Positions 8,261 to 64,000 of a stretch of DNA of 64,000 bases are shown here, one piece after another. The DNA lies in NCBI RefSeq assembly GCF_003334385.1, contig NZ_QOWN01000022.1; one strand, 5' to 3'. Below the pieces are notes generated by a model. It worked only from the letters and a program-made list of their open reading frames with translations. It had not been told where the DNA came from and searched no databases. Source of the DNA: Escherichia coli. Lineage in GTDB: Bacteria > Pseudomonadota > Gammaproteobacteria > Enterobacterales > Enterobacteriaceae. Positions within the stretch are counted from its first letter, which is position 1. The number at the start of each line of letters is the position of its first letter. The position numbers and the translations under genes were made by a program.

Positions 8261-8290
8261 AGCGGCCAGTTTCTTTACAAGGAGTTTTAA

Positions 8291-45365: not shown

Positions 45366-45366
45366 A

Positions 45367-45582: not shown

Positions 45583-45660
45583 CGCATCACCTCTGGCAGG
45601 CGCCAATGTTAGACTGAAATTGACGCCCGATGTTGATTATTAATAATCAGCTATGAAGTT

Positions 45661-45870
45661 TTAATTTGAATACAATGCAATTCTCGAGGACTGAAGTTTC
45701 TCGCAATTAAAATTTATCAGTTTTACTTTCTGCTCTCTGGAAACGCCTGCTTCTTTTTTACCTGAGAGCATTTTTTCGCATTCTGATTTCGTTAGTTTAG
45801 ATTTTGAATATCTTGTCCAGTTAGTAGGAGTGCCACCTTCCTTTTCAATAGTGGCGGTAATTTTATACAT
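45661..45870 (-). CDS. ydaC: Rac prophage small protein YdaC
   Basis: 69-aa MYKITATIEKEGGTPTNWTRYSK ORF (an internal start of the 93-aa track ORF); overlaps the ralR stop. Confidence 0.75.
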   Translation of the reverse strand: MYKITATIEKEGGTPTNWTRYSKSKLTKSECEKMLSGKKEAGVSREQKVKLINFNCEKLQSSRIALYSN

Positions 45871-46057
45871 GAACACCTCCATTATTATTTCCAGTGGTTC
45901 GTTTATTCCATCTTTCGAGTGCTTCTTTTTCACTTCCACCATAACCGGTTCGGGATTCGCATCCGTTACACTTCGCTCGGTAATATCCTGAAATGGCTTT
46001 CACCGTTACTGATGGACAACCACAAAATGGACATGGTTTAACATTGTCATATCTCAT
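45863..46057 (-). CDS. ralR: restriction-alleviation / DNase toxin (Lar family)
   Basis: 64-aa MRYDNVKPCPFCGCPSVTVKAISGYYRAKCNGCESRTGYG with a Cys4 zinc-ribbon; recognised as RalR. Confidence 0.88.
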   Translation of the reverse strand: MRYDNVKPCPFCGCPSVTVKAISGYYRAKCNGCESRTGYGGSEKEALERWNKRTTGNNNGGVHV

Positions 46058-46112
46058 AATTTTTCTCATAAAAATATTTCAAGTTGGCGGTGCATTACAC
46101 CGCCAGGCTGAA

Positions 46113-46922
46113 TTATTCCTCTGAATTATCGATTACACTGTATTCCCCGGTTAATACAGAGGAATCTGCAGGATCGATTGTCAGTGGTTCCTTTTCATCC
46201 ATTGATACTGCACGCTGGATCTCAATTGATACGGGCAGATATTTGAACAGGCGACGAATAGCCGTTTTCTTTGCCATTTCTTCCCAGTGAGTTACCCACG
46301 GCCCGTTATTACCAGCTTTACTCAGGCTGCGCACCAGCTCAATCTGTTTGCGCGTCATAACTTCAAACTGAGTACCTCCGTCTTTCAGTCTTGCGACAGC
46401 ATAGACGTGGGTAACCGGGGCATCTTCGTTTTCTCCCGGGCGGTGTATTAACTTTTCATCAAGGCCAAATTCGAAGCTAAACTCGTCACCTTCACGGACA
46501 ACACGGGCTGACAGGCTGGCGATTTGACCAGAACGGCGAGCCAGATCAATCATGCCGCGATAGCCAATGATTAGCTGAACGTTCTTTTTACCGCTCTTTT
46601 CGTTTTTATTACCAAAAGGCAGTAAATATGCATGACCGAGGGCGCTACCTGGCTCAAGTCCGAGCTGTGAACACTGTACGATCGCACTGACAAAACTCAT
46701 AGTGTCACAGTTTCCTAACGCCGGAACTTTACGAATTTCTGTGGTGGCGATACGGATCATACGTTCAGCCGTCATATGGCGTGGAAGAGCTGCTGCCAGT
46801 TGCTCTTTCATTGATGGCTGGTTAATAAAACTAATCACGTCGCTATTTTTAACTGCTGCTGGTGCACGGTTTCCCTGAGTTTTTTGCAGATCGGCTTTTG
46901 CGATTGGTGGTTGCTTAGTCAT
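46113..46922 (-). CDS. recT: single-strand annealing recombinase RecT
   Basis: Start at 46922 gives a 269-aa [18 protein letters not shown] protein; overlaps the recE stop. Confidence 0.95.
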
Positions 46923-49515: not shown

Positions 49516-49616
49516 TGTTTTTTAACCTCAACTCAGATTAAAATTCGTTTTGTTCAGTGAATGATCTTGCCGGATACACACTGTTCATAGCCTGCGCCAT
49601 ACGCAGGCTATTTCTT

Positions 49617-49892
49617 TCAGATTTCACCTTTTAATTTCATTGCAATTAGAGTTGCCAGAAATTCGGCTTTTTTTTCTGCGGGCAGATTCTTTCCGATATG
49701 CACCAGGCACATTTTTTTGACACCTTCATCAAGTGTTTTTACGTTGCCTGATGGACCATCGATATCAACCACAGTGAATGGGGTTTCTTTATTTTCTGTT
49801 TTAATTACGTAGCCAATGCGCTTTCCTTCCAGATTCACCTCGTGAACAATGTCATCGGTAGTTACAACAGTGGCTTCATAATTGGTAATCAT
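49617..49892 (-). CDS. racC: Rac prophage protein RacC
   Basis: Start at 49892 gives a 91-aa MITNYEATVVTTDDIVHEV protein. Confidence 0.85.
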   Translation of the reverse strand: MITNYEATVVTTDDIVHEVNLEGKRIGYVIKTENKETPFTVVDIDGPSGNVKTLDEGVKKMCLVHIGKNLPAEKKAEFLATLIAMKLKGEI

Positions 49893-49966
49893 GTTTTTCT
49901 CCTTAATTAAGGTTGAGCGAATACCTGCCATTTCTGGCATAAATTCAGTTTCGAATAGTCAATTAA

Positions 49967-50137
49967 TTAAAGTTCATGTGCCATCTGGTCTTTTTCGGCA
50001 CAAGCTTCACTGCAATATTTTCTCGGTTCGTCTTTTGATAAAATCCCGTGCATGAAGTGAAGCATTCTTTCAATAGCTTTGCTTTTTTCAACGTCTTTTT
50101 TGCAAAGGTGGTAAGCACATTTTATTTTCTTAGTCAT
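49967..50137 (-). CDS. ydaE: small Cys-rich protein YdaE
   Basis: My own translation; below the track cutoff. [56 protein letters not shown], 56 aa. Its ATG overlaps the kilR stop (ATGA). Confidence 0.8.
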   Translation of the reverse strand: MTKKIKCAYHLCKKDVEKSKAIERMLHFMHGILSKDEPRKYCSEACAEKDQMAHEL

Positions 50138-50358
50138 CACCATGACTCCGCCTTTACAGGTAAACCATCACGACCGAGGAAGACTTTAATCATGCGGTCA
50201 GTAATGCATGTTTTTGTGGTCAGGTTACGAATATATAGTTTTCGCTTTTTAATATTGTTTGCCGAGGCAATATATGTCCGGCCTTCATGAAGAACATAAT
50301 CGCCAGGAGTCACACACTGACGTGGTATTTCATCAGTTCCGAAGTGATGTGCAATCAT
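50137..50358 (-). CDS. kilR: FtsZ-targeting cell division inhibitor KilR
   Basis: 73-aa [24 protein letters not shown]; recognised as KilR. Confidence 0.9.
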
Positions 50359-50799
50359 AATTATCTCCATTTTTACAAATGAACTTTGTTGATGCGGTGC
50401 CTGGTGCCTCCAGGTGACTGCAACCAGTTAACAATTACAGTCGGCTTTCCCACCCAAACCAATAAGGACTAACATGACTTTTAACTGTGCCACGTGCGCT
50501 TAGCCGCATTCACCGCATCACAAAATTCACTTTAAAAAGGGCGGACATCAGCCGAACTTCAAGAAAAAAACTGATGCCGCCAGGACTACACACAGCAATG
50601 TCGTTATTTACAACCGGAGGCGCACTCCCACCATTTAAATTTAACAGACAAGACCGACTCTTTATGGATATCGGAAATGCGCCTTCGTGTTGTGCCCGGT
50701 TTTATTTCACCACCTCCGGGCTTCGGTGGTCTCGGCTATACCCCTACAGCGAGAGCTTGTGTTAACATTTCAATACCCTTACAGTTGAGAGTTATTGAT

Positions 50800-51288
50800 A
50801 TGTTGGATGTATTTACTCCATTGTTGAAACTTTTTGCTAACGAGCCACTCGAAAGACTTATGTATACGATTATCATTTTTGGTCTCACTCTCTGGCTGAT
50901 ACCGAAAGAGTTTACTGTCGCATTCAATGCTTATACTGAAATACCTTGGCTCTTTCAGATTATCGTTTTTGCCTTTTCTTTCGTGGTCGCCATTTCCTTC
51001 TCAAGATTGCGAGCACATATTCAAAAGCATTATTCATTACTACCAGAGCAACGAGTATTGCTTCGTTTATCTGAGAAAGAAATCGCTGTATTTAAAGATT
51101 TCCTTAAAACAGGAAATCTTATTATCACTTCTCCTTGCCGTAACCCGGTTATGAAAAAATTAGAACGGAAGGGCATCATTCAACATCAGAGTGATAGCGC
51201 AAACTGTTCTTATTATCTCGTCACCGAAAAATACTCCCATTTTATGAAGTTATTCTGGAACAGCAGGAGTAGACGTTTTAATCGTTAG
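50800..51288 (+). CDS. sieB: superinfection exclusion protein B
   Basis: ATG at 50800 gives a 162-aa MLDVFTPLLKLFANEPLERLMY protein with two TM segments. The track's 203-aa form adds an implausible N-terminal extension. Confidence 0.9.
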   Translation: MLDVFTPLLKLFANEPLERLMYTIIIFGLTLWLIPKEFTVAFNAYTEIPWLFQIIVFAFSFVVAISFSRLRAHIQKHYSLLPEQRVLLRLSEKEIAVFKDFLKTGNLIITSPCRNPVMKKLERKGIIQHQSDSANCSYYLVTEKYSHFMKLFWNSRSRRFNR

Positions 51289-51440
51289 CTTACTGTGTGC
51301 TTCTCCAACCATCGGCGCGCACCAGTTTCGGTTTTAAATATTTTGCTTTTTGTATACGTCATCGCGGTGAACGTTCCATCCTGGTTGGGGAACACGCCGC
51401 ACACCAGGGATTCGTTATTGCGGAGGTCGATTTTTTGCAT
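51285..51440 (-). CDS. ydaF: Rac prophage small protein YdaF
   Basis: My own translation. MQKIDLRNNESLVCGVFPNQDGTFTAMTYTKSKIFKTETGARRWLEKHTVS, 51 aa. Its stop overlaps the sieB stop convergently. Confidence 0.75.
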   Translation of the reverse strand: MQKIDLRNNESLVCGVFPNQDGTFTAMTYTKSKIFKTETGARRWLEKHTVS

Positions 51441-51450
51441 TTTTCGCACC

Positions 51451-51585
51451 TCACATTTTGTTGTTGCGGATAGAGGCTTCTGCCTGCCAGAGATCCCAGT
51501 CGTTGCTGCGTAAAGCCTGCACAGCCTGGTTGTAAGTGATGCCGCAACAATCCATCAAATACTGAACTACTTCGTAATGCACCAT
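51451..51585 (-). CDS. ydaG: Rac prophage small protein YdaG
   Basis: My own translation. MVHYEVVQYLMDCCGITYNQAVQALRSNDWDLWQAEASIRNNKM, 44 aa, preceded by ggagagataag. Confidence 0.75.
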   Translation of the reverse strand: MVHYEVVQYLMDCCGITYNQAVQALRSNDWDLWQAEASIRNNKM

Positions 51586-51754
51586 CTTATCTCTCCCCTT
51601 AACGCCGGGTGGCGGAACTAACTGCTGCACTGCAAAATTTGAATCCCGCCGTCATGTTCATACGCCTCGGGCTGGCTACTTAACCCCTTACCACTGCCTG
51701 GTAACTCGAAGTATTGCCCGGCGTTCTGTGGGGCGGGGTGGGTGGTATGCTGGA

Positions 51755-51823
51755 ACTATAGGTAATGCCTAATTGATTGTCAATAGGTTATGCCTAATGT
51801 TTTGAGCGTAACCTAATAGGTGA
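51755..51823 (-). promoter_or_regulatory. PL-like promoter with three repressor operators
   Basis: On the minus strand: -35 TTGACA (51783-51778), a 17-nt spacer, and -10 TATAGT (51760-51755). The 15-bp 6-3-6 sites are ATAGGTAATGCCTAA (51758-51772), ATAGGTTATGCCTAA (51783-51797) and the degenerate TAACCTAATAGGTGA (51809-51823). Confidence 0.65.
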
Positions 51824-51893
51824 TGGCGACAGCAGAAAGTGATGGGGGGGTTAAATAACGGAATCCAGGAGTTTTCCGTCAGACCATATAAGT

Positions 51894-52370
51894 TTAAGTT
51901 CCAGTTTTTGTGATGTTCTGGCTTTTCCGTTCAGATTCTAGAGCTTTCAGATACTTACCCACTTTCATTTCCATCGCTGCTATGTAGGCGCGAACATCGT
52001 GGTCAACCCAATCTGGTTCTGTAGCATTTCCAGATAACAGGAAAGCTACAATCGCTCTTATTTCATCAGAGGCTGCTTGATAAAGGTTGTTTATATCTAA
52101 AAGTTCACTTTTTGTATCTGAATTGGTGGGGGTTGGTATGGGGTATTCGTTAAGCCCCCAATGCTCTGGACCAACAACATCAGAAAAGAAACGCCATAAT
52201 TCTGGAAGTTTATCTTTACTTATAGAGCCTTTCTTAATCCAGTCATAAATTGATGGTGGTTGGACTTTGAAGTGGCGTGCGACCTCCGCCTTTGATTTGA
52301 CGGATCCCGATGCGATTTTTTTGTTAATGGCCTGCTCTATCGCTCGGCCTAAGTCTTTACCACTAAGCAT
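51894..52370 (-). CDS. racR: CI-like prophage repressor
   Basis: 158-aa ORF with an N-terminal HTH (SKAEVARHFKVQPPSIYDWIKK), divergent from the Cro-like ydaS. Confidence 0.92.
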   Translation of the reverse strand: MLSGKDLGRAIEQAINKKIASGSVKSKAEVARHFKVQPPSIYDWIKKGSISKDKLPELWRFFSDVVGPEHWGLNEYPIPTPTNSDTKSELLDINNLYQAASDEIRAIVAFLLSGNATEPDWVDHDVRAYIAAMEMKVGKYLKALESERKSQNITKTGT

Positions 52371-52398
52371 TGCTTAATATTCTCCTATGCGCATTACA

Positions 52399-52467
52399 TT
52401 AGGCAATCCCTACCCTTATCGCATTAGGCATAGCCTATTGACAATTGCGTTAGGCGTAGCCTAATAT
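52399..52467 (+). promoter_or_regulatory. PR-like promoter with three repressor operators
   Basis: -35 TTGACA (52438-52443), an 18-nt spacer, and -10 TAATAT (52462-52467). The sites are TTAGGCAATCCCTAC (52399-52413), TTAGGCATAGCCTAT (52424-52438) and the perfect palindrome TTAGGCGTAGCCTAA (52450-52464). Confidence 0.7.
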
Positions 52468-52493
52468 TTCTGTGTGTTTTTGGAGTTCATTCG

Positions 52494-52790
52494 ATGAAAA
52501 AAGAGAACTATTCATTCAAGCAAGCTTGTGCTGTTGTCGGTGGGCAATCAGCAATGGCTAGGCTTTTAGGTGTATCACCTCCAAGCGTAAATCAATGGAT
52601 CAAAGGGGTACGTCAATTGCCTGCCGAGAGATGTCCAGCAATTGAACGTGCAACAAGAGGTGAGGTTCTGTGCGAAGAACTTCGTCCTGATATTGACTGG
52701 TCATATTTACGACGTTCGGCATGTTGTTCGCAGAATATGTCAGTGAAGCAACTAAATGACAGTAACAAATCCTCATTTGATCATACCTGA
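52494..52790 (+). CDS. ydaS: Cro/CII-like HTH protein (toxic when derepressed)
   Basis: 98-aa ORF with HTH QSAMARLLGVSPPSVNQWIKG; first gene of the rightward operon. Confidence 0.9.
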   Translation: MKKENYSFKQACAVVGGQSAMARLLGVSPPSVNQWIKGVRQLPAERCPAIERATRGEVLCEELRPDIDWSYLRRSACCSQNMSVKQLNDSNKSSFDHT

Positions 52791-52812
52791 AACATCAAGA
52801 GGCAAATGATTC

Positions 52813-53235
52813 ATGAAAATCAAGCATGAGCACATCGAATCAGTGTTGTTTGCCCTGGCAGCCGAAAAAGGGCAGGCATGGGTAGCCAATGCAATTACTG
52901 AAGAATATCTGCGCCAGGGGGGCGGCGAATTGCCCCTGGTTCCAGGCAAGGACTGGAACAATCAGCAGAATATCTATCACCGTTGGTTGAAAGGTGAAAC
53001 GAAAACGCAAAGAGAAAAAATTCAGAAGCTGATCCCAGCAATTCTGGCAATCCTTCCGCGCGAGCTGCGTCACCGATTCTGCATCTTCGATACCCTGGAA
53101 CGCCGTGCATTACTGGCGGCGCAGGAAGCGTTAAGTACGGCAATTGATGCGCATGATGATGCAGTCCAAGCCGTTTACCGGAAAGCGCATTTCAGCGGCG
53201 GCGGGTCTTCCGACGATTCTGTCATTGTTCATTAA
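52813..53235 (+). CDS. ydaT: Rac prophage protein YdaT
   Basis: 140-aa ORF MKIKHEHIESVLFALAAEKGQAW in the conserved position after ydaS. Confidence 0.88.
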   Translation: MKIKHEHIESVLFALAAEKGQAWVANAITEEYLRQGGGELPLVPGKDWNNQQNIYHRWLKGETKTQREKIQKLIPAILAILPRELRHRFCIFDTLERRALLAAQEALSTAIDAHDDAVQAVYRKAHFSGGGSSDDSVIVH

Positions 53236-53247
53236 GCAAAAGTTTCC

Positions 53248-54105
53248 ATGCTGTTTGTGCTTATTCTAAGCAACCGGGCAGCATCATACGGGGCAATTAT
53301 GGCCGCATTACCATACATGCAACTGTACATAGCTGATTACCTGGCTGACACCATGCATTTGTCAGCAGAGGAGCACGGTGCGTATTTGTTGCTGATGTTC
53401 AATTACTGGCAAACAGGAAAGCCAATACCCAAAAACAGGCTGGTAAAAATTGCCCGCCTGACTAACGAGCGATGGGCTGATGTTGAACCATCCTTGCGGG
53501 AGTTTTTTTGCGATAACGGCGAGGAATGGGTGCATCTTCGGATTGAGGAAGATCTGGCATCAGTCAGGGAAAAATTAACCAAAAAATCAGCCGCAGGAAA
53601 AGCATCGGTTCAGGCCAGAAGAAGCAGAAAGGAAGCAGATGTTCAAACAAAACAAGAGAGAAATTTAACAGGTGTTCAAACAGATGTTGAAGTGGTGTTT
53701 GAACATGATGTCAACACAAAGGCAACTAATAAAGATACAGATAAAGATCTAAAAACAGATCCCCCCCTAAATCCCCCCCGGGGGAATCGAGGTGTTAAAA
53801 AGTTTGACCCTCTGGATATTGCTTTGCCGAACTGGATTTCTGTCTCGCTTTGGCGTGAGTGGGTTGAATTTCGCCAGGCATTGCGTAAACCGATTCGAAC
53901 GGAGCAGGGCGCTAACGGGGCGATACGGGAGCTGGAAAAATTCCGCCAGCAGGGTTTTTCACCTGAGCAGGTGATTAGACACAGCATTGCCCATGAATAC
54001 CAGGGCTTGTTTGCGCCGAAAGGCGTTCGGCCTGAGACGTTGCTTCGACAGGTTAACACCGTCTCGTTTCCGGACAGTGCGATCCCACCAGGCTTCAGGG
54101 GGTAA
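53248..54105 (+). CDS. ydaU: replication initiator-like protein (DUF1376, lambda O analog)
   Basis: 285-aa ORF; the N-terminal YMQLYIADYLADTMHLSAEEHGAYLLLMFNYW matches the DUF1376 pattern. Confidence 0.88.
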   Translation: MLFVLILSNRAASYGAIMAALPYMQLYIADYLADTMHLSAEEHGAYLLLMFNYWQTGKPIPKNRLVKIARLTNERWADVEPSLREFFCDNGEEWVHLRIEEDLASVREKLTKKSAAGKASVQARRSRKEADVQTKQERNLTGVQTDVEVVFEHDVNTKATNKDTDKDLKTDPPLNPPRGNRGVKKFDPLDIALPNWISVSLWREWVEFRQALRKPIRTEQGANGAIRELEKFRQQGFSPEQVIRHSIAHEYQGLFAPKGVRPETLLRQVNTVSFPDSAIPPGFRG

Positions 54106-54111
54106 CGAAGC

Positions 54112-54858
54112 ATGAAAAATATTGCGACAGGCGGCGTTCTGGAACGTATCCGCAGACTGGCCCCGCCACATGTAACCGCGCCATTCAGGACGGTGGCGGA
54201 GTGGCGCGAGTGGCAACTTGCAGAAGGCCAGAAACGTTGTGAGGAGATCAACCGTCAGAATCGTCAGTTGCGGGTGGAAAAAATCCTGAATCGCTCCGGC
54301 ATCCAGTCGTTGCACCGCAAATGCTCGTTTTCGAATTACCAGGTGCAGAACGAAGGGCAGCGATACGCGTTGAGTCAGGCGAAATCCATCGCTGATGAAC
54401 TGATGACCGGGTGTACAAATTTTGCGTTCAGCGGAAAACCTGGTACCGGAAAAAACCATCTGGCGGCGGCTATCGGGAATCGCCTGCTGAAAGATGGCCA
54501 GACAGTGATTGTGGTTACCGTGGCTGATGTCATGAGTGCCCTACACGCCAGCTATGACGACGGGCAATCAGGCGAAAAATTTTTGCGGGAACTGTGCCAA
54601 GTGGATCTGCTGGTTCTTGATGAAATTGGCATTCAGCGCGAGACAAAAAACGAGCAGGTGGTGCTGCACCAGATTGTTGATCGCCGGACAGCGTCGATGC
54701 GCAGCGTGGGGATGCTGACAAACCTGAATTATGAGGCCATGAAAACATTGCTCGGCGAGAGGATTATGGATCGCATGACCATGAACGGCGGGCGATGGGT
54801 GAATTTTAACTGGGAGAGCTGGCGTCCGAATGTCGTCCAGCCAGGAATTGCGAAGTAA
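54112..54858 (+). CDS. ydaV: DnaC/IstB-like helicase-loader ATPase
   Basis: 248-aa ORF with Walker [10 protein letters not shown] and Walker B LLVLDEIG. Confidence 0.92.
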
Positions 54859-54880
54859 TTTTTACCGGGAGAAAAATTTA

Positions 54881-55642
54881 ATGGAGACTGTTTTTGACGC
54901 ACTGAAAGCAATGGGAAAAGCTACATCCATAGAACTTGCTGCGCGACTTGATATCAGCCGTGAAGAAGTGCTGAACGAACTATGGGAACTGAAAAAGGCT
55001 GGTTTCGTTGATAAAAGCGCGTACACCTGGCGTGTGGCTGATAACAACGTTCAGCAGGAACAGCCAGCGCCGGCAGAACTGCCGGAAGAAACTACCACGG
55101 CAACAGTCGCGAAAATTTCAGAGAGCGATTTAACTGCGACGATTGAACAACGTGGTCCACTAACTGCGGATGAACTGGCTACGTTGTTCGGTACCACATC
55201 CCGCAAAGTGGCTTCAACGCTGGCAATGGCAATCAGCAAAGCTCGTCTGATTCGCGTTAATCAGAACGGTAAATTTCGTTACTGCATGCCGGGCGGTAAT
55301 TTACCAGCAGAGCCGAAAGCTGCATCGGTAGCGGAAACAGATGGTAAAGCCTTTCCTCAGCTAGCCGGTGTTGCGTTACCAGTACAGGAAGCTGCAACAC
55401 AGGAAGATATTAAAACAGAAACTGTGGCGGACATTGTGCAGTCGTTGCCATCGTTTACTGAAACGCAAGCGGATAACCTGATTTTACCATCGCTGCATAT
55501 GGCAAACCGTGAACTGCGTCGGGCGAAAAATCATGTCCAGAAGTGGGAGCGAGTCTGCGCCGCGCTGCGGGAGCTGAACAAGCACCGGGATATTGTTCGA
55601 CAGATTACTGATTCTTCCCGCCGTGTTGTATCGGAAAAGTGA
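54881..55642 (+). CDS. winged-helix phage protein (DUF1627-like), full-length counterpart of K-12 ydaW
   Basis: ATG at 54881 after gggaga gives [43 protein letters not shown], a MarR-like wHTH. The track start at 54830 overlaps ydaV and is less likely. Confidence 0.7.
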
Positions 55643-55657
55643 TTGCCGAAGGCGCTT

Positions 55658-56089
55658 ATGGCAAAAGTATTTACACAAGAAGAGCGAGAAAAAATTAAAG
55701 GGCAGGTTGTTGAGCTAGTACGCCGGAGTGGGCGCGAGACGTTACGGCAACTGGAAGCCAAGACAGGTGCGACAAGATATCTGATGAGCGTTCTCGCCAG
55801 AGAGCTGGTTGCCAGTGGCGATGTATACAACTCTGGTTACGGGTTATTCCCGTCTGAACAGGCTCGTAAGGACTGGCAAAATGCCCGCAAAAAACTATCT
55901 AGGGCAAAGGTGAAGAAACCATCTGTGGTTGATCCGGACCTTATCTGGTCATTACCAGACGGAGAAATACGCCGCTACGACAGGCGTCTGAACATAATCT
56001 GTCGCGAGTGCCGGAAGAGCGAAGTTATGCAGCGTGTGCTGGCGTTTTATCAGAATGGTTTTCGAGAGAGGCTTGGAGATCAGGGATGA
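55658..56089 (+). CDS. hypothetical phage protein
   Basis: 143-aa ORF from ATG 55658 (the track start at 55643 is TTG). It opens with a wHTH-like N-terminus (VELVRRSGRETLRQLEAKTGATRYLMSVLARELVASG). GC-normal, last gene before the AT-rich island. Confidence 0.6.
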   Translation: MAKVFTQEEREKIKGQVVELVRRSGRETLRQLEAKTGATRYLMSVLARELVASGDVYNSGYGLFPSEQARKDWQNARKKLSRAKVKKPSVVDPDLIWSLPDGEIRRYDRRLNIICRECRKSEVMQRVLAFYQNGFRERLGDQG

Positions 56090-56307
56090 ATAGAACGATG
56101 AAGGATGGAAGCTACATATTCTCGGTACTAAGATTTATTTTTCTGACACAAAATGACCATTTGGCGTTACATAATCCCAAAAAAACGTATCAAAAATCTC
56201 AAAATGCGTTACGATTAGAGAGTATTTTGATTCTGCGTGCTCATTTTTTGATTGCTGTGGCTTTTTGTTGTGGGAGTGTTGAATGGATTATTTATCAGAA
56301 GTGTTAA
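56086..56307 (+). CDS. possible small hydrophobic ORF at the island's left edge (speculative)
   Basis: An internal ATG of the track ORF 56008-56307, preceded by GGAGA at 56075-56079. ATGA overlap with the upstream stop; 25-nt overlap with the ATPase start. 73 aa with hydrophobic stretches YIFSVLRFIFL and ILILRAHFLIAVAFCCG. Confidence 0.25.
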   Translation: MNRTMKDGSYIFSVLRFIFLTQNDHLALHNPKKTYQKSQNALRLESILILRAHFLIAVAFCCGSVEWIIYQKC

Positions 56308-57437
56308 AAATCATTGAAGGTGCAACAAAGGCAAATGCTTCGATGGCTAGTAATTATGCTGGGTTGCTGGCAGATAAGCTCGAACAAAAAGGGGAGGTCA
56401 AGCAAGCCAGAATGATAAGAGAAAGGTTGCTTAGAGCTCCCCAGGCGTTGGCAGGAGCTCAAAGGGCTGGAGGTGGGATATCTCTGGGCTCATTACCGGT
56501 AGATATTGATAGTCGACTCAACACTGTTGATGTCAGTTATCCTAAATTAGACAGTTCAGAGATTTTTCTGCCTGCAGCAATCAGTACCCGTGTTGAAGAG
56601 TTTATCACTAATGTTCAACGTTATGATGAGTTTGTTAAAGCTGATGCAGCATTGCCGAGTCGTATGCTCGTGTATGGAAAGCCAGGAACAGGTAAGACTA
56701 TGTTATCTAAGTACATCGCTACCCGCTTAGATTTTCCACTTCTTACAGTGCGTTGCGATACTTTGATTAGTAGTTTATTGGGACAAACCAGCAAAAATCT
56801 TAGACAGGTTTTCGATTATGTAATGCAGAGGCCATCAGTGCTTTTTTTAGACGAATTTGATGCTTTAGCTGGAGCAAGAGGTAATGAGAGAGATATAGGT
56901 GAGCTTCAGCGAGTTGTCATTTCACTATTGCAGAATATGGATGCGGCATCAGAGGATACGGTAATTATTGCCTCAACTAACCATGAGCAACTTCTGGATC
57001 CTGCAATCTGGAGGCGATTTAGCTTCAGAATTCCAATGCCTCTGCCTGACATACATCAGAGAGAGTTAATTTGGAAAAATCGTTTAAAGAATATGATATG
57101 TAGCGATCTAGATTTAAGTGATTTATCAAGAAAATCGGAAGGATTATCCGGAGCAATAATTGAACAGGTGAGCTTGGATGCACGTAGGGATGCAGTTATT
57201 GAAGGTGCAAGTGTGATAAATCACCACAAATTGTATAGGCGTTTGTATCTTGCTCAATCGCTTATGGAAGGTGTAAATTTAAGCACTTACGAAGATGAAA
57301 TTCGTTGGTTACGTTCTAAAGATAAAAAATTATTTTCTATCAGAGTTCTTGCTAATTTGTACAAACTTACATCAAGAGTAATTTCAAACATTCTGAAGGA
57401 GTCAGGAGCATATGAGCAGAAGGGGTACACAGTTTAG
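56283..57437 (+). CDS. classical-clade AAA+ ATPase (candidate defence-system ATPase, IetA-like)
   Basis: 384 aa. Walker A GKPGTGKT (res 132-139), Walker B VLFLDEFD (186-193), sensor-1 STNH (N233). The second region of homology carries Arg fingers in PAIWRRF (R244/R245). SD gggag lies 6 nt upstream. Confidence 0.9.
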   Translation: MDYLSEVLKIIEGATKANASMASNYAGLLADKLEQKGEVKQARMIRERLLRAPQALAGAQRAGGGISLGSLPVDIDSRLNTVDVSYPKLDSSEIFLPAAISTRVEEFITNVQRYDEFVKADAALPSRMLVYGKPGTGKTMLSKYIATRLDFPLLTVRCDTLISSLLGQTSKNLRQVFDYVMQRPSVLFLDEFDALAGARGNERDIGELQRVVISLLQNMDAASEDTVIIASTNHEQLLDPAIWRRFSFRIPMPLPDIHQRELIWKNRLKNMICSDLDLSDLSRKSEGLSGAIIEQVSLDARRDAVIEGASVINHHKLYRRLYLAQSLMEGVNLSTYEDEIRWLRSKDKKLFSIRVLANLYKLTSRVISNILKESGAYEQKGYTV

Positions 57438-59676
57438 TAACGCAAAAGTTACAAACCCAACGTTAAGAATCCCTTTTTCCAGTAGTGACTTGGGTGCAAT
57501 AGTAAACGCTGGCGGTGGGGCAAAGGTATTGGTTGATGTAACAGCCGAATATAGACAAGGGCTAGTAAGAAATTTAACAACCAGTAAACATTATTTAGAA
57601 TCCAAACTTTCAGAGTACCCTGGAAGCTTGGGTACTTTGGTTTTCAAATTAAGAGACCAGGGAATAGCCAAAACGCATAGGCCGAACAAAATTGCTCAAG
57701 AGGCTGGATTGCAAAATGCCGGTCATGCCAAAATAGATGAAATGTTGGTTGCTGCTCATGCCGGCTGTTTTGACGTATTAGAGTCAGTCATTTTAAATCG
57801 GAATATTAAAGCGATTTTGGCTAATCTAAGCGCGATTGAGCGCATTGAACCTTGGGATGAGAATAGGAAGGTTCCGGGAGGCACTGATGGTTTGTTTGAA
57901 TCATCAAACATCCTTGTACGACTATTTGAGTACACAGGTGAAGATGCAACTTACAACAACTATGAAAACGTTATTTCTATATTAGAACAATACGGAGTTA
58001 AATATGATGAAATTAGACAAAAATGTGGTCTTCCCTTATTAAGGATAATGGATTTATCCCCAAGTGATAGATATATATTAGACATTCTCATTGATTACCC
58101 GGGTATAAGAACGTTAATTCCAGAACCAAAATATTCAGCATTCCCGGTTAGTGTAAGTGATTCTGTTGGCATTGAAACAAATAGCTTTCCCGTACCATCA
58201 GAAGAATTACCCATTGTTGCTGTATTTGACACTGGGGTAAGCCCCATCGCGGCAACAATTACTCCTTGGGTAGTGAGTAGGGAAACATACGTAATTCCTC
58301 CTGATACGAGTTATGAACATGGGACTATGGTGTCTTCATTGATATCAGGCGCTCATTTTTTAAATGACAATCATCCATGGATTCCTGATACAAAATCTAA
58401 AATCCATGATGTTTGTGCTTTAGATGAAAATGGATCTTATATATCAGATTTAATTCTGAGGCTAGCAGATGCTGTAAATAAAAGACCAGATATAAAAGTC
58501 TGGAATTTGTCTTTGGGAGGCGGACCATGTAATGAGCAGATGTTTAGTGATTTTGCGATGGAGTTAGATCGGCTCAGCGATAAATTTGGTATTTTGTTTG
58601 TAGTTGCTGCAGGTAATTATGTAGATGAACCTATACGTACATGGCCAAATCCTGATCCGCTTGGAGGTGCTGATTTAATTTCCTCTCCTGGAGAGTCAGT
58701 CCGAGCACTAACAGTTGGTTCAGTTTCTCATATGGAAGCTAATGATGCTTTAAGTGAAATTGGAACACCGACACCATATACTCGTCGTGGCCCTGGGCCT
58801 GTATTTACTCCAAAGCCAGATATAATCCATGCTGGCGGTGGGGTTCATAGACCTTGGAATGTAGGAGCAAGCAGTTTAAAGGTCGTAGGGCCAGATAATA
58901 GGCTTTGCTCTAATTTTGGTACTAGTTTTGCTGCTCCAATTGTGGCAAGTTTAGCTGCGCATACATGGCAGAGAATAGCCACTAATTCAGACTTTAATGT
59001 TTCACCATCATTGATTAAAGCATTATTAATTCATTCCGCTCAATTATCTTCTCCTGATTACTCGCCAAGTGAAAGACGCTATTTGGGAGCGGGAATTCCT
59101 AATGAGGTTATTGAGACCTTATATGATAGTGATGATAGGTTTACTCTGATTTTCCAAACATTCTTGGTTCCTGGGGTGAGGTGGAGAAAGGAAAACTATC
59201 CCATACCATCGGCACTTATTCAAAATGGAAAATTTAAAGGTGAGATTGTAATTACTGCTGCATATGCACCACCACTAAACCCTAATGCCGGCAGTGAATA
59301 TGTTCGCGCGAACGTAGAGCTAAGTTTTGGCTTAATTGAGAATAATACTATAAAAGGAAAAGTGCCTATGGAAGGAGAAAACGGTCAATCTGGATATGAG
59401 AGAGCTCAAATTGAGCATGGTGGAAAGTGGTCACCAGTAAAAATTCATCGCAAGGCATTTAATAAAGGAATTACTTCGGGTAACTGGGCTCTTCAGGCTA
59501 AAACAACGTTGAGAGCGAATGAACCGGCCTTAATGGAGCCTTTACCTGTAACTATTGTAGTAACTTTAAAATCATTAGATGGAAACACACAAGTTTATGC
59601 TGATGGTGTAAGAGCTTTAAATGCTAATAACTGGGCTCACTATCCATTGCCTGCTCGTGTGCCAGTTTCCGTATAA
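57412..59676 (+). CDS. large cytoplasmic S8 subtilisin-like serine protease (candidate defence effector, IetS-like)
   Basis: 754 aa. Catalytic Asp in VAVFDTGV (D273, nt 58228-58230), His in EHGTMV (H303, nt 58318-58320), oxyanion Asn in AAGNY (N401), Ser in GTSFAAP (S505, nt 58924-58926). No signal peptide. The start overlaps the ATPase gene by 26 nt. Confidence 0.9.
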   Translation: MSRRGTQFSNAKVTNPTLRIPFSSSDLGAIVNAGGGAKVLVDVTAEYRQGLVRNLTTSKHYLESKLSEYPGSLGTLVFKLRDQGIAKTHRPNKIAQEAGLQNAGHAKIDEMLVAAHAGCFDVLESVILNRNIKAILANLSAIERIEPWDENRKVPGGTDGLFESSNILVRLFEYTGEDATYNNYENVISILEQYGVKYDEIRQKCGLPLLRIMDLSPSDRYILDILIDYPGIRTLIPEPKYSAFPVSVSDSVGIETNSFPVPSEELPIVAVFDTGVSPIAATITPWVVSRETYVIPPDTSYEHGTMVSSLISGAHFLNDNHPWIPDTKSKIHDVCALDENGSYISDLILRLADAVNKRPDIKVWNLSLGGGPCNEQMFSDFAMELDRLSDKFGILFVVAAGNYVDEPIRTWPNPDPLGGADLISSPGESVRALTVGSVSHMEANDALSEIGTPTPYTRRGPGPVFTPKPDIIHAGGGVHRPWNVGASSLKVVGPDNRLCSNFGTSFAAPIVASLAAHTWQRIATNSDFNVSPSLIKALLIHSAQLSSPDYSPSERRYLGAGIPNEVIETLYDSDDRFTLIFQTFLVPGVRWRKENYPIPSALIQNGKFKGEIVITAAYAPPLNPNAGSEYVRANVELSFGLIENNTIKGKVPMEGENGQSGYERAQIEHGGKWSPVKIHRKAFNKGITSGNWALQAKTTLRANEPALMEPLPVTIVVTLKSLDGNTQVYADGVRALNANNWAHYPLPARVPVSV

Positions 59677-59690
59677 CAACTATATAAATC

Positions 59691-59720
59691 AAACCCGCTG
59701 TAGCGGGTTTGATTTATTTG
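59691..59720 (+). terminator. rho-independent terminator of the ATPase-protease cassette
   Basis: aaacccgc-tgta-gcgggttt hairpin followed by gatttatttg, 15 nt after the protease stop. Confidence 0.8.
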
Positions 59721-60092: not shown

Positions 60093-60692
60093 ATGGCGCA
60101 TATACAACTGGTCAAACAAACCTCTTCTGGTTTACTTCTCCCGGCGACGCCGGAGAGTTGCGATTTTCTGCATCAAATCAAAATAGGTGAGTTGATACAC
60201 GCAGACTTTAAGCGTGTGCGTAACTACGCATTCCACAAGCGTTTTTTCAAACTCCTGCAACTGGGATTCGATTACTGGACTCCGGTCGGTGGGGCGATCA
60301 CGCCTCGCGAACGAGAACTGCTGTCTGGTTTCGTTGATTACCTGTGCGAATCAGTTGGTCGGGAACACACGCCAGCCCTGAGTGATGCCGCAGAGCAATA
60401 CCTTAACACCGTTGCGACTCGTAGAACCCGGGATACGGCGTTGCTAAAGTCGTTTGAGGCTTTCCGCGAGTGGGTAACCATTCAGGCCGGATTTTACACC
60501 GAGCATATTTATCCGGACGGTAGCCGTGGGCGTCGGGCAAAATCCATCGCTTTTGCGAATATGGACGAAGTCGAGTTTCAGCAGGTTTATAAATCTGTAC
60601 TGAATGTGCTGTGGAACTGGATTCTGTTCCGTAAATTCTCCTCTCAGGAGGAAGTTGAAAATGTGGCCGCACAACTACTGGAGTTTGCGTAA
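60093..60692 (+). CDS. lambdoid nin-region protein (DUF1367-like)
   Basis: 199-aa ORF MAHIQLVKQTSSGLLLPATPESCDFLHQIKIGE. Family assignment is from recollection of prophage annotations. It is coupled (ATGG overlap) to the next gene. Confidence 0.6.
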   Translation: MAHIQLVKQTSSGLLLPATPESCDFLHQIKIGELIHADFKRVRNYAFHKRFFKLLQLGFDYWTPVGGAITPRERELLSGFVDYLCESVGREHTPALSDAAEQYLNTVATRRTRDTALLKSFEAFREWVTIQAGFYTEHIYPDGSRGRRAKSIAFANMDEVEFQQVYKSVLNVLWNWILFRKFSSQEEVENVAAQLLEFA

Positions 60693-60982
60693 TGGTGAAT
60701 TTACGTAAAGCGGCTAAAGGCCAGATGTGCCAGATCAGAATCCCTGGCTACTGCAATCACAATCCCGAAACCTCTGTGCTGGCGCATTACAGGCTGGCGG
60801 GGACGTGCGGAACAGCGACAAAACCACACGATATGCAGGCGGCGATAGCCTGTAGCTCATGCCACGATCTAATCGACGGGCGGGTAAAAACCAGCGATTA
60901 CACCAAAGAAGAATTGCGCCTGATGCATGCTGAAGGGGTTTTTCGCACACAAGAAATCTGGAGAAAGAAAGGTCATTTATGA
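60692..60982 (+). CDS. YbcO-like putative zinc nuclease (DUF1364)
   Basis: 96-aa ORF MVNLRKAAKGQMCQIRIPGYCNHNPETSVLAHYR...ACSSCHDLIDGR with conserved Cys/His; resembles DLP12 YbcO as I recall it. Confidence 0.65.
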   Translation: MVNLRKAAKGQMCQIRIPGYCNHNPETSVLAHYRLAGTCGTATKPHDMQAAIACSSCHDLIDGRVKTSDYTKEELRLMHAEGVFRTQEIWRKKGHL

Positions 60983-61521
60983 TTTACCCAACGAATACAG
61001 GAAAAAGCGGAGAACACCTTCGCCTCACCACGCTGGAAAGTGTCTGGATTCAGGGAAAACTACGTATGTGGGGGCGCTGGTCGTATATTGGCGGTGGCAG
61101 GTCAGGGAATATGTTCAATCAGTTGTTGGCATCCAAAAAACTGACGAAAACAGCCATTAATGAAGCCCTGCGCAGAATGAAAAAAGCGGGAATAGAGAAA
61201 GCTGAGCTGGAAGCGTTTTTGCGAGAGATGATCAACGGCAAGCAAAAGAGCTGGCTGGCGCATTGTACTGATGCAGAGGCGTTATGTATTGATCGAGTCA
61301 TAAGTGAGGTGCTGGCAGAGCATCCAGGATTGATTTGCATTCTCCGGCAACGCTATGAAGGGCGGGGGATGACTAAGCGCAAAATGGCTGAATTGCTAAA
61401 TGATGCACACCCAGAGTGGTGTTTTAGCACATGCGAAAAACGGATTGCTAATTGGTTAGCTGTTGCTGAGTATGCCCTATATATTCCCATGCGTGAATCA
61501 TTTGCTGAGAAAATGGCTTGA
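60979..61521 (+). CDS. putative late-gene antiterminator (Q-like, DUF1133-type)
   Basis: 180-aa ORF overlapping the upstream stop, positioned directly before a short terminated leader and the lysis region. Assignment rests on position and family recollection only. Confidence 0.5.
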   Translation: MIYPTNTGKSGEHLRLTTLESVWIQGKLRMWGRWSYIGGGRSGNMFNQLLASKKLTKTAINEALRRMKKAGIEKAELEAFLREMINGKQKSWLAHCTDAEALCIDRVISEVLAEHPGLICILRQRYEGRGMTKRKMAELLNDAHPEWCFSTCEKRIANWLAVAEYALYIPMRESFAEKMA

Positions 61522-61601
61522 TTTCTTACGTATAAACTGCTTCAATTTTGCTATGCTTCGCAAAGCTGTATCGCGAGGCGGATTGCAGACATGGACATCG
61601 T

Positions 61602-61628
61602 AAAAAAACCGCTTAATGCGGTTTTTTT
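61602..61628 (+). terminator. strong rho-independent terminator downstream of the Q-like gene (tR-prime analog)
   Basis: aaaaaaaccgc-ttaat-gcggttttttt: a GC stem flanked by A7 and T7 runs. Confidence 0.8.
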
Positions 61629-62565
61629 ACGTCAGGAAAGCAGGGGAGAATGCTGCTAGTTGGGCAACTGGTCTTTCTGCTCCAAATTATAACAGAGACC
61701 AGTTATAGTTTCGGTGCTGTGTTTTTTTTACAATATTGTGATAACACATTGCTGGCGGGAGTTTTGATATTTCTTGGCAGGGGCTGATGATGCGTTATCC
61801 TGATGTCGTCAACTCATATAAAATGAGATGAGAGATCATTGCAGGGTGGTTTGTAATTCGCTGTTTAGCGGGACAATATGTTGTCTGATACAAGACACCC
61901 GACGCCTCAGATTACTATAATAAAGACGAAGCATCCTTTGTATTGACCAACCGCCTGTTTAGGCGGTTCTTTCTGGGCTGGTTTATTGTATGCCAAATGA
62001 TTATTAAAAAGGTTGTGTTAATAACAAAATCCGAAATAATATGCCTGCATATTTTTATCTTGCTTATATTCTGCATATTGTGCATAGCAGGCTCATCCCT
62101 GCAATCAAAACTGTATGATGAGTATTTTTTGTTTTCCTTTTTTCCAGTCATCTGATGATGACCTGCTTCTTTTTAATCCGGATCGACATCAGTTTTTTAA
62201 GATAATTCCTGCGAGTTATATGCATAAATGCCACAAACTCCGCATTTTATGTGGTTGGGAGTTGCCGGGCGCGCAGTGAGTTTGCTAAGAAAACTCCTGC
62301 ATGGTGAATCCCCCTGTGCGGTGGGGTGATACCATTAACCTTTTCTGTCGCCGACAGGTATCACGAACATTTTGTTCACCGGGAGGCACCCGGCACCATG
62401 CACTTCAATAGATTCTCTCCACATTATGGATATTCTTTCAGAATATCCCACGCAGACTTTGTGTAAATGTTAACAAATGTGCGTTTTATTTGATCTGATT
62501 CGCTGTTTGAGCGTCCAAAACAACGGTATATATAATCCTTTACTATATGACATATGTGAGGAAAA

Positions 62566-62994
62566 ATGGGTTTTCGTAGCGCATCAATTCTTACGTTGAT
62601 TATTAGTGGGATTATTATCGGGTGCACTGATGCTGTATCGACAAATTATCATGACCGTACATCATATTACTCCGATAAAGCAATAGAGACACAGTATGTG
62701 AGTTCATCTGAACGTACTTCTGATGTTAGTGAGGATATCCGTCTGTATGCCCATCAAATCAAGAGCGCCATCGAAAAACAGTTCGGGGATGCGAGTAAGT
62801 ATTCAGGAAAAGAGTGTACACTGAGAATGCATATGGCCCCGAATGGCCTTCTACTGGAGGTTAAAAGAGAAAGTGGAGACCTCGATTTATGTCGTGAAGC
62901 GATGAATGCGATAAAGAATGCTGATATACCTGCCCCCCCTTCGCCGGAAGTATATAAAGTATTTCAAAATGGGGTGCTGGATTTTAAACCCTGA
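62566..62994 (+). CDS. lipoprotein with TolA domain-III-like C-terminal domain
   Basis: 142 aa with SD gaggaa and lipobox IIGC. The C-terminal YAHQIKSAIEKQFGDASKYSGKECTLRMHMAPNGLLLEVKRESGDLDLCREAMNAIKNADIPAPPSPEVYKVFQNGVLDFKP aligns at roughly 60 percent identity with the TolA C-terminus as I recall it. Confidence 0.85.
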   Translation: MGFRSASILTLIISGIIIGCTDAVSTNYHDRTSYYSDKAIETQYVSSSERTSDVSEDIRLYAHQIKSAIEKQFGDASKYSGKECTLRMHMAPNGLLLEVKRESGDLDLCREAMNAIKNADIPAPPSPEVYKVFQNGVLDFKP

Positions 62995-63144
62995 TATTTA
63001 TTGTTTTGTAATAAACGGTTTCGGCTTAGGTTTGTTCTGACACAGCTACGGCACTGAGCTAAATTTAGCGGATAGTCAGCTCTGAGCCAGTGGCGGACGT
63101 AACAACTACTATTGCTGAGATTTTAATGGATTGAGGAGCAAGAA

Positions 63145-63540
63145 GTGGGATTAAAGAAAATCGTTATGTTGACTTTTTGGGTCGGTTTTGTTGCGGGATG
63201 CACACCTTTACACCCTTCAGATTGCCACAAAACTACTGCTACAGGTAGTTGCAGTTCAGGACGCTGGGATGATCAGGATGAATGGGGGGCGCAAGCGCGG
63301 GGAATCAGAGCTGCAATTAATGCCAAACTTGATGAGCCGCATAACTGGAAAGGGAAAAAATGCAGGTTGCATATGGAATTCTCTCAGGATGGCACGGCGT
63401 TAAAAATATCTACCAGTAACGGTGATAAAGCCTATTGCGAAGCGATAAAGTCCGCAGCTCATAAAGCCAAATTTCCGGCCTTCAACAATCCGGAAGTCTA
63501 CAGAGATTTTCAGAAATCTGGCTTTGACATGCGAGGTTAG
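63145..63540 (+). CDS. second, diverged TolA domain-III-like lipoprotein
   Basis: 131 aa, GTG start with SD gaggag 5 nt upstream, lipobox VAGC. The C-terminal GIRAAINAKL...KGKKCRLHMEFSQDGTALKISTSNGDKAYCEAIKSAAHKAKFPAFNNPEVYRDFQKSGFDM keeps the TolAIII pattern, including the Cys pair. Confidence 0.75.
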   Translation: MGLKKIVMLTFWVGFVAGCTPLHPSDCHKTTATGSCSSGRWDDQDEWGAQARGIRAAINAKLDEPHNWKGKKCRLHMEFSQDGTALKISTSNGDKAYCEAIKSAAHKAKFPAFNNPEVYRDFQKSGFDMRG

Positions 63541-63791
63541 CTCTTCAATTACTATATCTCATTCATAGCAAACTGACAGATTTGATGATGTTCTATATAC
63601 GAAACCTGTGATGTCAAGTCTGAGCTAATACAAATAAACATAATATCAGAGAAATACATTTTATTAGCTCGCTACGGCGAGCTTTTTATATTGCATCGTC
63701 TCCAGCATATATATCAATTAAGGCTCTGATTGATGTGTCTGAAAGCCTACACATAATAACTATGCCATCCGTTCCGTGCGGAGGTGAGGCT

Positions 63792-64000
63792 ATGAAATCC
63801 ATGGGCAAAATTTCAACAGGCATTGCCTACGGCACCTCCGCAGGCAGTGCTGGCTACTGGTTTTTACAGTTGCTCGATAGAGTAACTCCGTCACAGTGGG
63901 CTGCAATCGGTGTGCTGGGTAGTCTGGTATTTGGCCTGCTGACGTACCTGACAAACCTTTATTTCAAGATTAAAGAAGATAAGCGCAAGGCTGCGAGAGG
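63792..64000 (+). CDS. S21-type class II holin (pinholin), 3' end beyond window
   Basis: [70 protein letters not shown]. It has a dual-start motif (Met1/Met4), two TM segments and SD gaggtgagg; closely resembles phage 21 S / EssD. Confidence 0.88.

Follow-up and report, generated by a model that had tools for sequence, protein, structure and literature searches.

For filamentous phages and group A colicins alike, domain III of TolA (TolAIII) is a hub to which they need access, and E. coli cells that overproduce TolAIII, g3p or colicin T-domains in the periplasm become tolerant to group A colicins and Ff phages. Boeke et al. in 1982 reportedly described this laboratory decoy effect of periplasmic overproduction, and Levengood-Freyermuth et al. 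in 1993 are said to have obtained colicin and phage tolerance by overproducing TolAIII in the periplasm. All known resistance at the TolA step, to our knowledge, results from loss-of-function tol mutations, which cripple the envelope. Here we analyse two genes, ORF1 and ORF2, each of which encodes a small predicted lipoprotein ending in a TolAIII domain. They lie as two plus-strand open reading frames (ORFs) in the slot between the Q gene and the holin gene of a Rac-type E. coli prophage, within a stretch of 64,000 nucleotides (contig NZ_QOWN01000022.1) that is called the window below. Genes of this type are real, common and unstudied, the last probably because laboratory K-12 lacks them, and the hypothesis that their products act as decoys of TolA is plausible.

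The host's own TolAIII (residues ~325-421; PDB 1S62, 3QDP, 1TOL, 2X9A and 3QDR) shares with ORF1 and ORF2 the Pfam family, the fold, the disulfide pair and the C-terminal strand. Unlike TolA, the two proteins lack the long helical domain II and carry a lipoprotein signal at the N-terminus, and without transmembrane domain I they have no means of coupling to TolQR. Their predicted lipid anchor is in the opposite (outer) membrane, and their genes are found on mobile elements, outside the tolQRA-tolB-pal operon. The laboratory decoys share the proposed principle, titration of the interaction between TolAIII and its ligands in the periplasm, but they are artificial and soluble, and their strong overproduction comes with a leaky tol phenotype, whereas ORF1 and ORF2 are natural, selected and predicted to be lipid-anchored. 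Cor of phi80, N15 and mEp167, Llp of T5 and TraT of F are likewise small accessory lipoproteins of mobile elements. These outer-membrane proteins shield the cell that carries them at the step of entry, Cor and Llp by blocking the receptor FhuA in the outer membrane, whereas ORF1 and ORF2 would imitate a periplasmic co-receptor. No homology to Cor, Llp or TraT was found, as Pfam and PHROGs returned only TolA_C/TonB_2 and PHROG 5772 of 'unknown function'. The morons known between Q and holin (stx, nanS-p, lpxR and others) occupy the same slot and carry a different cargo. As in that setting, a small RNA (sRNA) gene of the STnc100 family lies upstream of ORF1, and the unit of the two genes has a promoter-like site and a terminator. 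The positions of the two genes in the window are as follows.

62566-62994, plus strand: ORF1, a predicted lipoprotein of 142 amino acids (aa), with the TolAIII domain in residues 55-142 (62728-62991).
63145-63540, plus strand: ORF2, a predicted lipoprotein of 131 aa, with the Shine-Dalgarno sequence GAGGAG at 63133-63138 and the TolAIII domain in residues 45-131 (63277-63537).

Both proteins matched the Pfam family PF06519 (TolA_C) well above its gathering score of 25. ORF1 scored 82.6 bits (E 2.4e-23) over profile positions 4-96 of 96, and ORF2 54.6 bits (E 1.3e-14) over positions 10-92. Residues 55-142 of ORF1 align without gaps to TolA 334-421, with 52 of 88 residues identical (59%; E 5e-28 against solved TolA chains); TolA Cys363 and Cys388 correspond to C84 and C109 of ORF1, and the terminal LDFKP is also kept. 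For ORF2, 27 of 80 residues are identical between positions 50-129 and TolA 340-419 (34%). The AlphaFold models of both proteins show the TolAIII order of secondary structure: alpha1, short helix, beta1, beta2, alpha2, helix, beta3. In ORF1 the domain is predicted with a pLDDT of ~90 and the linker with less than 50. The ORF2 domain (pLDDT ~90) was superimposed by Foldseek on the TolAIII structure 3QDP with a TM score of 0.89 and a root-mean-square deviation (rmsd) of 1.1 Å, and its best structural matches were all TolAIII, ahead of TonB. Both domain cysteines are invariant in the aligned family members, which together with the models indicates the TolAIII fold with its disulfide pair.

The N-terminus of ORF1 reads MGFRSASILTLIISGIIIGC followed by TD, with the lipobox IIGC, Cys20 at 62623-62625 and Thr at position +2. 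That of ORF2 reads MGLKKIVMLTFWVGFVAGC followed by TP, with the lipobox VAGC, Cys19 at 63199-63201 (counted from the GTG start) and again Thr at +2. Both satisfy a lipobox rule of the PROSITE PS51257 type (basic n-region, uncharged h-region, [LVI][ASTVI][GAS]C, Cys at position 15-35), and the lipobox cysteine is invariant in 19 aligned family members, which points to lipidation of both proteins. Under the Lol sorting rule Asp at +2 is the signal for retention in the inner membrane. Neither protein has Asp there, and both are predicted to be sorted to the outer membrane, the place at which ligands entering the cell are met first. ORF2 starts at GTG 63145: this codon is ATG in the plasmid homologues, behind the same Shine-Dalgarno sequence, and the KK n-region is kept in all members of its family. 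The start chosen by PGAP and RefSeq (ATG 63166) drops the n-region of the signal peptide and fails the lipobox rule. An earlier note on this DNA, made from the sequence alone, had described two lipoproteins with IIGC and VAGC lipoboxes and Thr at +2, ORF2 starting at the GTG, each ending in a TolA C-terminal domain, the first about 60% identical to TolA with its Cys pair and LDFKP and the second much more diverged, and all of this agrees with the results given here and goes far beyond what chance would produce.

ORF1 and ORF2 thus belong to the TolA_C domain family but cannot be called TolA: domains I and II are missing, the genes are not part of the tol-pal operon, and the scores remain below the cut-off of the full-length TolA model NF007065 (107.8 and 53.7 bits, respectively, against 213). 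A second model, TIGR02794 (cut-off 59.45), is passed by ORF1 with 75.6 bits on its C-terminal part alone and failed by ORF2 with 47.2. As the NCBIfam TolA models are matched only over their last ~90 positions (293-386 of 387), the RefSeq name 'TolA' for ORF1 is an over-annotation. PGAP names ORF1 'cell envelope integrity protein TolA', and in the prophage of strain ECCHD184 it flags the identical ORF1 (L003 20335-20595) as an incomplete tolA pseudogene.

That flag ('TolA, missing N-terminus') and the purely C-terminal match to full-length models would suit decaying 3′ fragments of tolA produced by illegitimate recombination, but we consider this origin extremely improbable. The lipoprotein signals have arisen de novo and have an invariant Cys and a good Shine-Dalgarno sequence, the reading frames are intact in hundreds of genomes, and dN/dS is well below 1. 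Among ORF1 variants the ratio lies at 0.09-0.34 for the domain, while the signal peptide plus linker evolves faster, at 0.40-0.78. In the ORF2 family (28 homologues, median dS 0.72) it is 0.12, and the linker (25 residues, 0.118) is as constrained as the domain. There is also no DNA similarity to host tolA, the kinship being at the protein level only (59% and 34%). The low dN/dS in the ORF2 family and in the ORF1 domain marks real genes rather than debris, and the evidence from selection and signal peptides effectively refutes a captured tolA fragment or pseudogene.

The linkers and surfaces of the two proteins are of different kinds. The linker of ORF1 is ~34 residues long and variable. In ORF2, linker residues 20-44 are conserved and contain an extra pair of cysteines, Cys27 and Cys36, that would loop it by a disulfide, and across the ORF2 family the linker is near-invariant, with the pattern C-x-PLHPS-x-CHKTTATGSCSSGRWDDQDEWG. 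ORF2 has a basic surface (pI 9.2), compared with a pI of 6.1 for the ORF1 domain.

The ligand contacts of TolAIII are described in passages of published structural work. Strand beta3 (412-421) is the site at which the TolB N-terminus, g3p-N1 and colicin N (ColN) dock by strand addition (PMC4339652; PMC7391070), and the substitutions D418P or K420P abolish the binding of TolB, ColN and g3p (PMC4339652). Helix alpha1 (334-349) forms a second contact with g3p (PMC4339652). Colicin A (ColA) binds strand beta2 (375-LLDIKP-380) together with K368, K379 and K396, and K368 pairs with the essential Tyr58 of ColA (PMC3365938). The corresponding segments of ORF1 and ORF2 compare as follows.

End of beta3: LDFKP in TolA (417-421); LDFKP, identical, in ORF1; FDMRG in ORF2, with the same hydrophobic-Asp-hydrophobic-basic pattern.
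Helix alpha1: GADINNYAGQIKSAIE in TolA; 11 of 16 residues identical in ORF1, including Y340; little similarity in ORF2.
Beta2 box: LLDIKP in TolA; LLEVKR in ORF1; ALKIST in ORF2.
K368, K379 and K396: K/K/K in TolA; H/K/K in ORF1; E/S/H in ORF2 (E78, S89 and H106).

The equivalent of D418 is near-invariant across both families (D139 in ORF1, D128 in ORF2). With LDFKP identical, 11 of 16 alpha1 positions kept, and two of the three lysines that make cation-pi contacts with ColA in place (K379 and K396), ORF1 looks like a faithful mimic of the site for TolB, g3p and ColN, and its imitation of the ColA site looks partial. ORF2 appears to retain the generic strand-addition edge only. Since it has lost the alpha1 similarity and all three lysines, and has an invariant, disulfide-looped linker of its own, its ligand may not be a classical TolA ligand.

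The mechanism best supported by these comparisons, more for ORF1 than for ORF2, is that of a decoy conferring tolerance, to which we assign a probability of roughly 0.45. Each cassette would supply a small lipoprotein that is anchored in the outer membrane on its periplasmic side and in which a free-standing TolAIII is the one folded part. The tethered domain would offer the strand-addition surface of host TolA (beta3, and in ORF1 also alpha1), and ligands crossing the outer membrane would be captured just beneath it, so that they never engage TolQRA, the inner-membrane motor. Candidates are g3p of filamentous phages with its N1 domain, colicin-like bacteriocins that depend on TolA, with their translocation domains, and possibly the N-terminus of TolB when E-type colicins expose it. 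If, as their sequences suggest, the proteins are lipidated, sorted to the outer membrane, expressed in the lysogen and able to bind these ligands, the lysogen or plasmid host would become tolerant to the agents concerned. ORF1, as the close mimic, would be the stronger decoy candidate, and ORF2 probably recognises a different ligand or ligands. The earlier note had likewise inferred a lipid-anchored TolAIII decoy that could provide superinfection exclusion or colicin tolerance, or could modulate Tol-Pal during lysis, and such functions would agree with the anatomy of the genes.

Several reported properties of the Tol system fit such a mechanism. Passages of the published work state that tolQ, tolR and tolA are strictly required for infection by filamentous phages (PMC13596461) and that group A colicins must reach TolA or TolB (PMC7391070). 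The invader epitopes bind TolAIII at ~1 µM in the passage concerned (PMC4339652), compared with 40-200 µM for TolB (PMC7391070), so that a modest amount of decoy could block invaders without a full tol phenotype. The g3p of phage If1, which uses IncI pili, docks on TolAIII (PDB 2X9A). Carriage of a decoy on conjugative plasmids would fit, as cells with pili are open to attack by Ff- and If1-type phages. The accessory, mobile carriage of both genes, as is usual for defence cargo, also supports the decoy mechanism.

The distribution of the two genes was followed separately. ORF1 and ORF2 are 31% identical as proteins, and blastn boundaries show that the ORF1 module stops at its stop codon (62995), the ORF2 module extending over 63110-63543. 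A tandem duplication was therefore rejected; the two genes are independent cassettes that have been juxtaposed in one prophage lineage. The earlier note had called them a tandem, diverged pair; the duplication and subfunctionalisation that such a term suggests do not survive the low identity and the independent movement of the cassettes. Its description of both as prophage lipoproteins is right for ORF1, found in prophages only, and too narrow for ORF2, found also on plasmids and on the chromosomes of at least 11 genera. Variants of ORF1 (91%, 74% and 66% identity) are confined to E. coli and Shigella and lie always between a gene in the Q position (DUF1133 or PF03589) and the holin gene. These variants are without ORF2, and some of them lie upstream of nanS-p and DUF826, as in Stx-type prophages. 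The exact tandem unit was found behind at least two different Q genes, including that of phage mEp460_ev081 (99.9% identity), and is present in 773 of 5426 complete E. coli genomes (14%). In K-12 MG1655 the Rac prophage (1422752-1423782) runs from ydaW through the rzpR pseudogene to trkG, the ninB-Q-sRNA-ORF1-ORF2-holin-lysozyme segment of the window being deleted.

Homologues of ORF2 with 87-88% nucleotide identity were found on 607 plasmid records, of which 259 are typed as conjugative, 46 as mobilizable and 302 as non-mobilizable, with hundreds of the plasmids being of the IncI1/B/O type. On the conjugative plasmid pHUSEC41-1 (IncI1/B/O) the gene is directly 3′ of the relaxase gene (L004 5995-6426), and on pO157 (pZ1626-1) it lies between the hok/psiAB region and toxB (L005 5995-6426). 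Chromosomal homologues, with 65-89% protein identity and always as a single gene, occur in at least 11 genera of Enterobacterales: Citrobacter, Enterobacter, Klebsiella, Raoultella, Serratia, Leclercia, Pantoea, Pluralibacter, Kluyvera, Yokenella and Rouxiella. Their neighbours vary with the genus: in Citrobacter the gene lies beside the ars operon, in Serratia beside genes for GmrSD and HEPN proteins, and in Enterobacter and Klebsiella it is surrounded by metabolic genes. ORF2 represents an older, separately conserved lineage. In Serratia marcescens the homologue adjoins genes of the GmrSD family and of HEPN proteins (RiboL-PSP/MAE_28990; L126-L128, ~6957-8736) in surroundings that resemble a defence island. 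In Citrobacter amalonaticus a gene for a 453-aa YncE-like seven-bladed beta-propeller is divergent from the ORF2 homologue (L006 6257-7618, minus strand; L007-L009). This protein was considered as a TolB-like partner and rejected, since it is YncE-like and is absent beside the homologues of other genera.

A number of observations weigh against a decoy role. Ligand binding by ORF1 and ORF2 is predicted from segment conservation only. ORF1 has His at K368, the partner of ColA's essential Tyr58, and ORF2, at 34% identity to TolAIII, has lost the alpha1 similarity and every one of the ColA lysines. The promoter-like sites upstream of the genes are consensus matches only, and the -10 is weaker in the nearest ORF1 variant. 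None of the families in the PADLOC-DB 2.0 defence models was matched by ORF1 or ORF2 at E <= 0.1. Many ORF2-type genes are in chromosomal surroundings without signs of a mobile element, and because pO157 is typed as non-mobilizable, pressure from pilus-dependent phages is not the whole story. The strong conservation of ORF2 across genera, linker included, fits a fixed partner, possibly a host protein, better than a mimic that tracks TolA. Finally, if a decoy also bound the TolB N-terminus, some loss of envelope integrity would be expected.

The same features of ORF2 allow another interpretation, namely that the TolA/TonB-type fold serves, at least in this lineage, as a general adaptor that binds by strand addition to a ligand other than those of TolA, such as the plug of an outer-membrane protein, another lipoprotein or a component of the envelope stress response, and that the protein is not a mimic. 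The low identities (34% to TolAIII and 31% to ORF1), the loss of alpha1 and ColA-site residues, the invariant family-specific linker with its extra Cys pair under the same constraint as the domain, the basic surface (pI 9.2 against 6.1 for the ORF1 domain) and the widely varying chromosomal contexts are all in its favour. We nevertheless regard it as unlikely, given that the beta3 pattern (FDMR against LDFK) and the domain Cys pair are kept, that the closest structures are all TolAIII and not TonB, and that a related role is suggested by its occurrence next to ORF1 in 14% of E. coli genomes.

If the decoy mechanism is correct, a selected, mobile and lipid-anchored copy of the hub would be a cost-limited route to tolerance, and it would represent a new logic of immunity at entry, in which a periplasmic co-receptor is imitated instead of a surface receptor being masked. 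A sizeable share of natural E. coli, including O157:H7 through pO157, would then be intrinsically less sensitive than K-12 to colicins of group A and phages of the Ff and If1 types, which would bear on colicin ecology, on hosts for phage display and on bacteriocin or phage therapeutics. Even if the decoy mechanism fails, a conserved outer-membrane TolAIII family that possibly touches TolB-Pal matters for envelope homeostasis and vesiculation in natural isolates.

The surroundings of ORF1 and ORF2 in the prophage contain the following features.

60093-61521: NinB-like gene, HNH/YbcO gene and the gene for a DUF1133 protein, assigned with PHROGs.
60979-61521, plus strand: Q-like late antiterminator gene (DUF1133) that borders the slot on the left; matched by PHROG 753 'anti-termination protein Q-like', E 2e-79; named DUF1133 family protein by PGAP.
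61892-61975, plus strand: promoter-like site AAGACA-18-TATAAT (10 of 12 in a consensus scan), then a hairpin AACCGCC-TGTTT-AGGCGGTT.
62269-62455, plus strand: prophage sRNA gene of the STnc100 family; Rfam RF02076, 86.6 bits against a gathering score of 47, E 3e-19, full model length.
62507-62536, plus strand: sigma-70 promoter-like site TTGAGC-18-TATAAT (10 of 12 in a consensus scan), 30 nucleotides 5′ of ORF1.
62556-62560, plus strand: Shine-Dalgarno sequence GAGGA of ORF1.
63666-63693, plus strand: intrinsic terminator AGCTCGC-TACG-GCGAGCT then TTTTTATATT, between ORF2 and the holin gene, found by a terminator scan.
63792-64000, plus strand: holin gene essD, which borders the slot on the right and is truncated by the end of the window; annotated as essD in the identical DNA of SE11 and ECCHD184.

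The unit formed by ORF1 and ORF2 has the classic architecture of a moron and occupies the slot in which Stx phages carry stx. It is variably present among related phages, with two Q genes found upstream, ORF1 alone elsewhere and the whole segment absent from K-12 Rac. The earlier note had placed the pair between a Q terminator and the holin gene; the Q-like gene and essD do flank it, and a Q terminator as such was not located. A search for tRNA genes between Q and ORF1, where Stx phages have them, found none. The site at 61892-61975 is a candidate late promoter and leader: the DNA shared with other ORF1-bearing prophages starts exactly at 61893 (blastn boundaries), and the hairpin has a folding energy of -14.3 kcal/mol, which is not significant relative to shuffled sequences (z -1.65). 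The sigma-70 site ahead of ORF1 has its -35 kept in the 91%-identical ORF1 variant, where the -10 reads TGTAAT. The terminator at 63666-63693 (-13 kcal/mol, z -3.4) folds better than all of 200 shuffled sequences, is kept in every IMG/VR copy that extends that far and would shield the lysis genes. As the unit has a promoter-like site and a terminator of its own, it is plausible that it is expressed in the lysogen.

The STnc100-family copy ends in an AU-rich hairpin without a consensus U-tract, so that transcription might read through into ORF1. The homology to phage mEp460 begins at 62278, at the 5′ end of this gene (blastn). Two pieces of it, 62278-62326 and 62375-62410, recur 3′ of ORF1 in other prophages (L014-L017). 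A passage of the work on STnc100/PasD and Q-to-holin cargo (bioRxiv 10.64898/2026.05.13.724894) describes STnc100 as a relative of PasD, an sRNA of Stx-type prophages; no mention of TolA was found there.

The position of the prophage copies immediately 5′ of the lysis cassette speaks for the proteins as possible modulators of the Tol-Pal system. In such a role the tethered TolAIII would bind the TolB N-terminus or TolB-Pal and so tune, to the advantage of the element, the mobilisation of Pal, the stability of the outer membrane or the release of vesicles, for example in shedding vesicles as a phage sink, easing rupture of the outer membrane at lysis or altering the permeability of the envelope. 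Passages of the published work identify the conserved beta3 site as the physiological TolB site (PMC4339652; PMC7391070), and the review, in the part concerned, says that modulated TolB interactions could regulate vesicle production (PMC7391070); the strong purifying selection on ORF2 across genera, linker included, would fit a conserved host partner. Against this stand the plasmid and chromosomal ORF2-type genes without lysis genes nearby, the strong terminator that parts the unit from the holin gene, and spanins, which already handle the outer membrane at lysis. Moreover, the affinity of TolA for TolB is given in that review as very weak (40-200 µM; PMC7391070), so that competition would need a high copy number, with a costly tol phenotype. 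We therefore rate modulation of Tol-Pal as rather improbable, and the narrower idea of a lysis accessory was judged unlikely, as ORF2 occurs without lysis genes and the terminator intervenes.

Decoys of the proposed kind could extend beyond these two lineages. A profile search of 1.84 billion representatives gave 567 relatives, 232 of them at E <= 1e-10. The best 150 of the 567 included 75 complete proteins of 110-190 aa, and 50 of these 75 have a lipobox. There are dozens of further clusters of small TolAIII lipoproteins. The database names of cluster members ('TolA family protein', 'colicin import membrane protein') are all derived from homology. No account of TolAIII lipoproteins on mobile elements was found in the parts of the TolA literature covered by full-text searches; the words 'prophage' and 'paralog' do not occur in the main 2020 review of Tol-Pal, and the matches in genome papers were, in the passages returned, automatic annotation lines or references only. 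We tentatively propose, as a possibility somewhat short of an even chance, that outer-membrane-tethered TolAIII proteins constitute a widespread natural 'co-receptor decoy' immunity against Tol-dependent bacteriocins and filamentous phages across the prophages, conjugative and virulence plasmids and chromosomal islets of Enterobacterales, with clusters specialised for different invader epitopes.

The left arm of the prophage, with int, xis, ralR, recET, kilR and sieB, was matched at 44896-51745 of the window. The immunity and replication region that follows (51745-59703) differs from the otherwise near-identical prophage of strain ECCHD184, which has metabolic cargo instead (BCCT transporter, DUF2254, LysR, MFS). 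Matches resembling isrK (an sRNA family of Gifsy-1) at 61555-61683, on both strands and 3′ of the Q-like gene, reached 20-22 bits against a gathering score of 50 and were therefore treated as probable chance hits.

Among the other clusters, one in Serratia, represented among the profile matches by proteins of 143-147 aa, consists of TolAIII lipoproteins of 143-175 aa encoded directly after icd (L130-L136, ~7001-7528). The icd site is an integration hotspot, and DNA of prophages or conjugative elements abuts the Serratia TolAIII gene. In some Serratia strains the abutting gene encodes a giant protein with MuF and LPD domains. Two longer relatives, P0177 (323 aa) and P0181 (235 aa), have a C-terminal TolAIII that is 77% and 71% identical, respectively, to E. 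coli TolA, and N-termini that are not TolA-like. These proteins, of secreted or lipoprotein type, may be further ways to present a free TolAIII.

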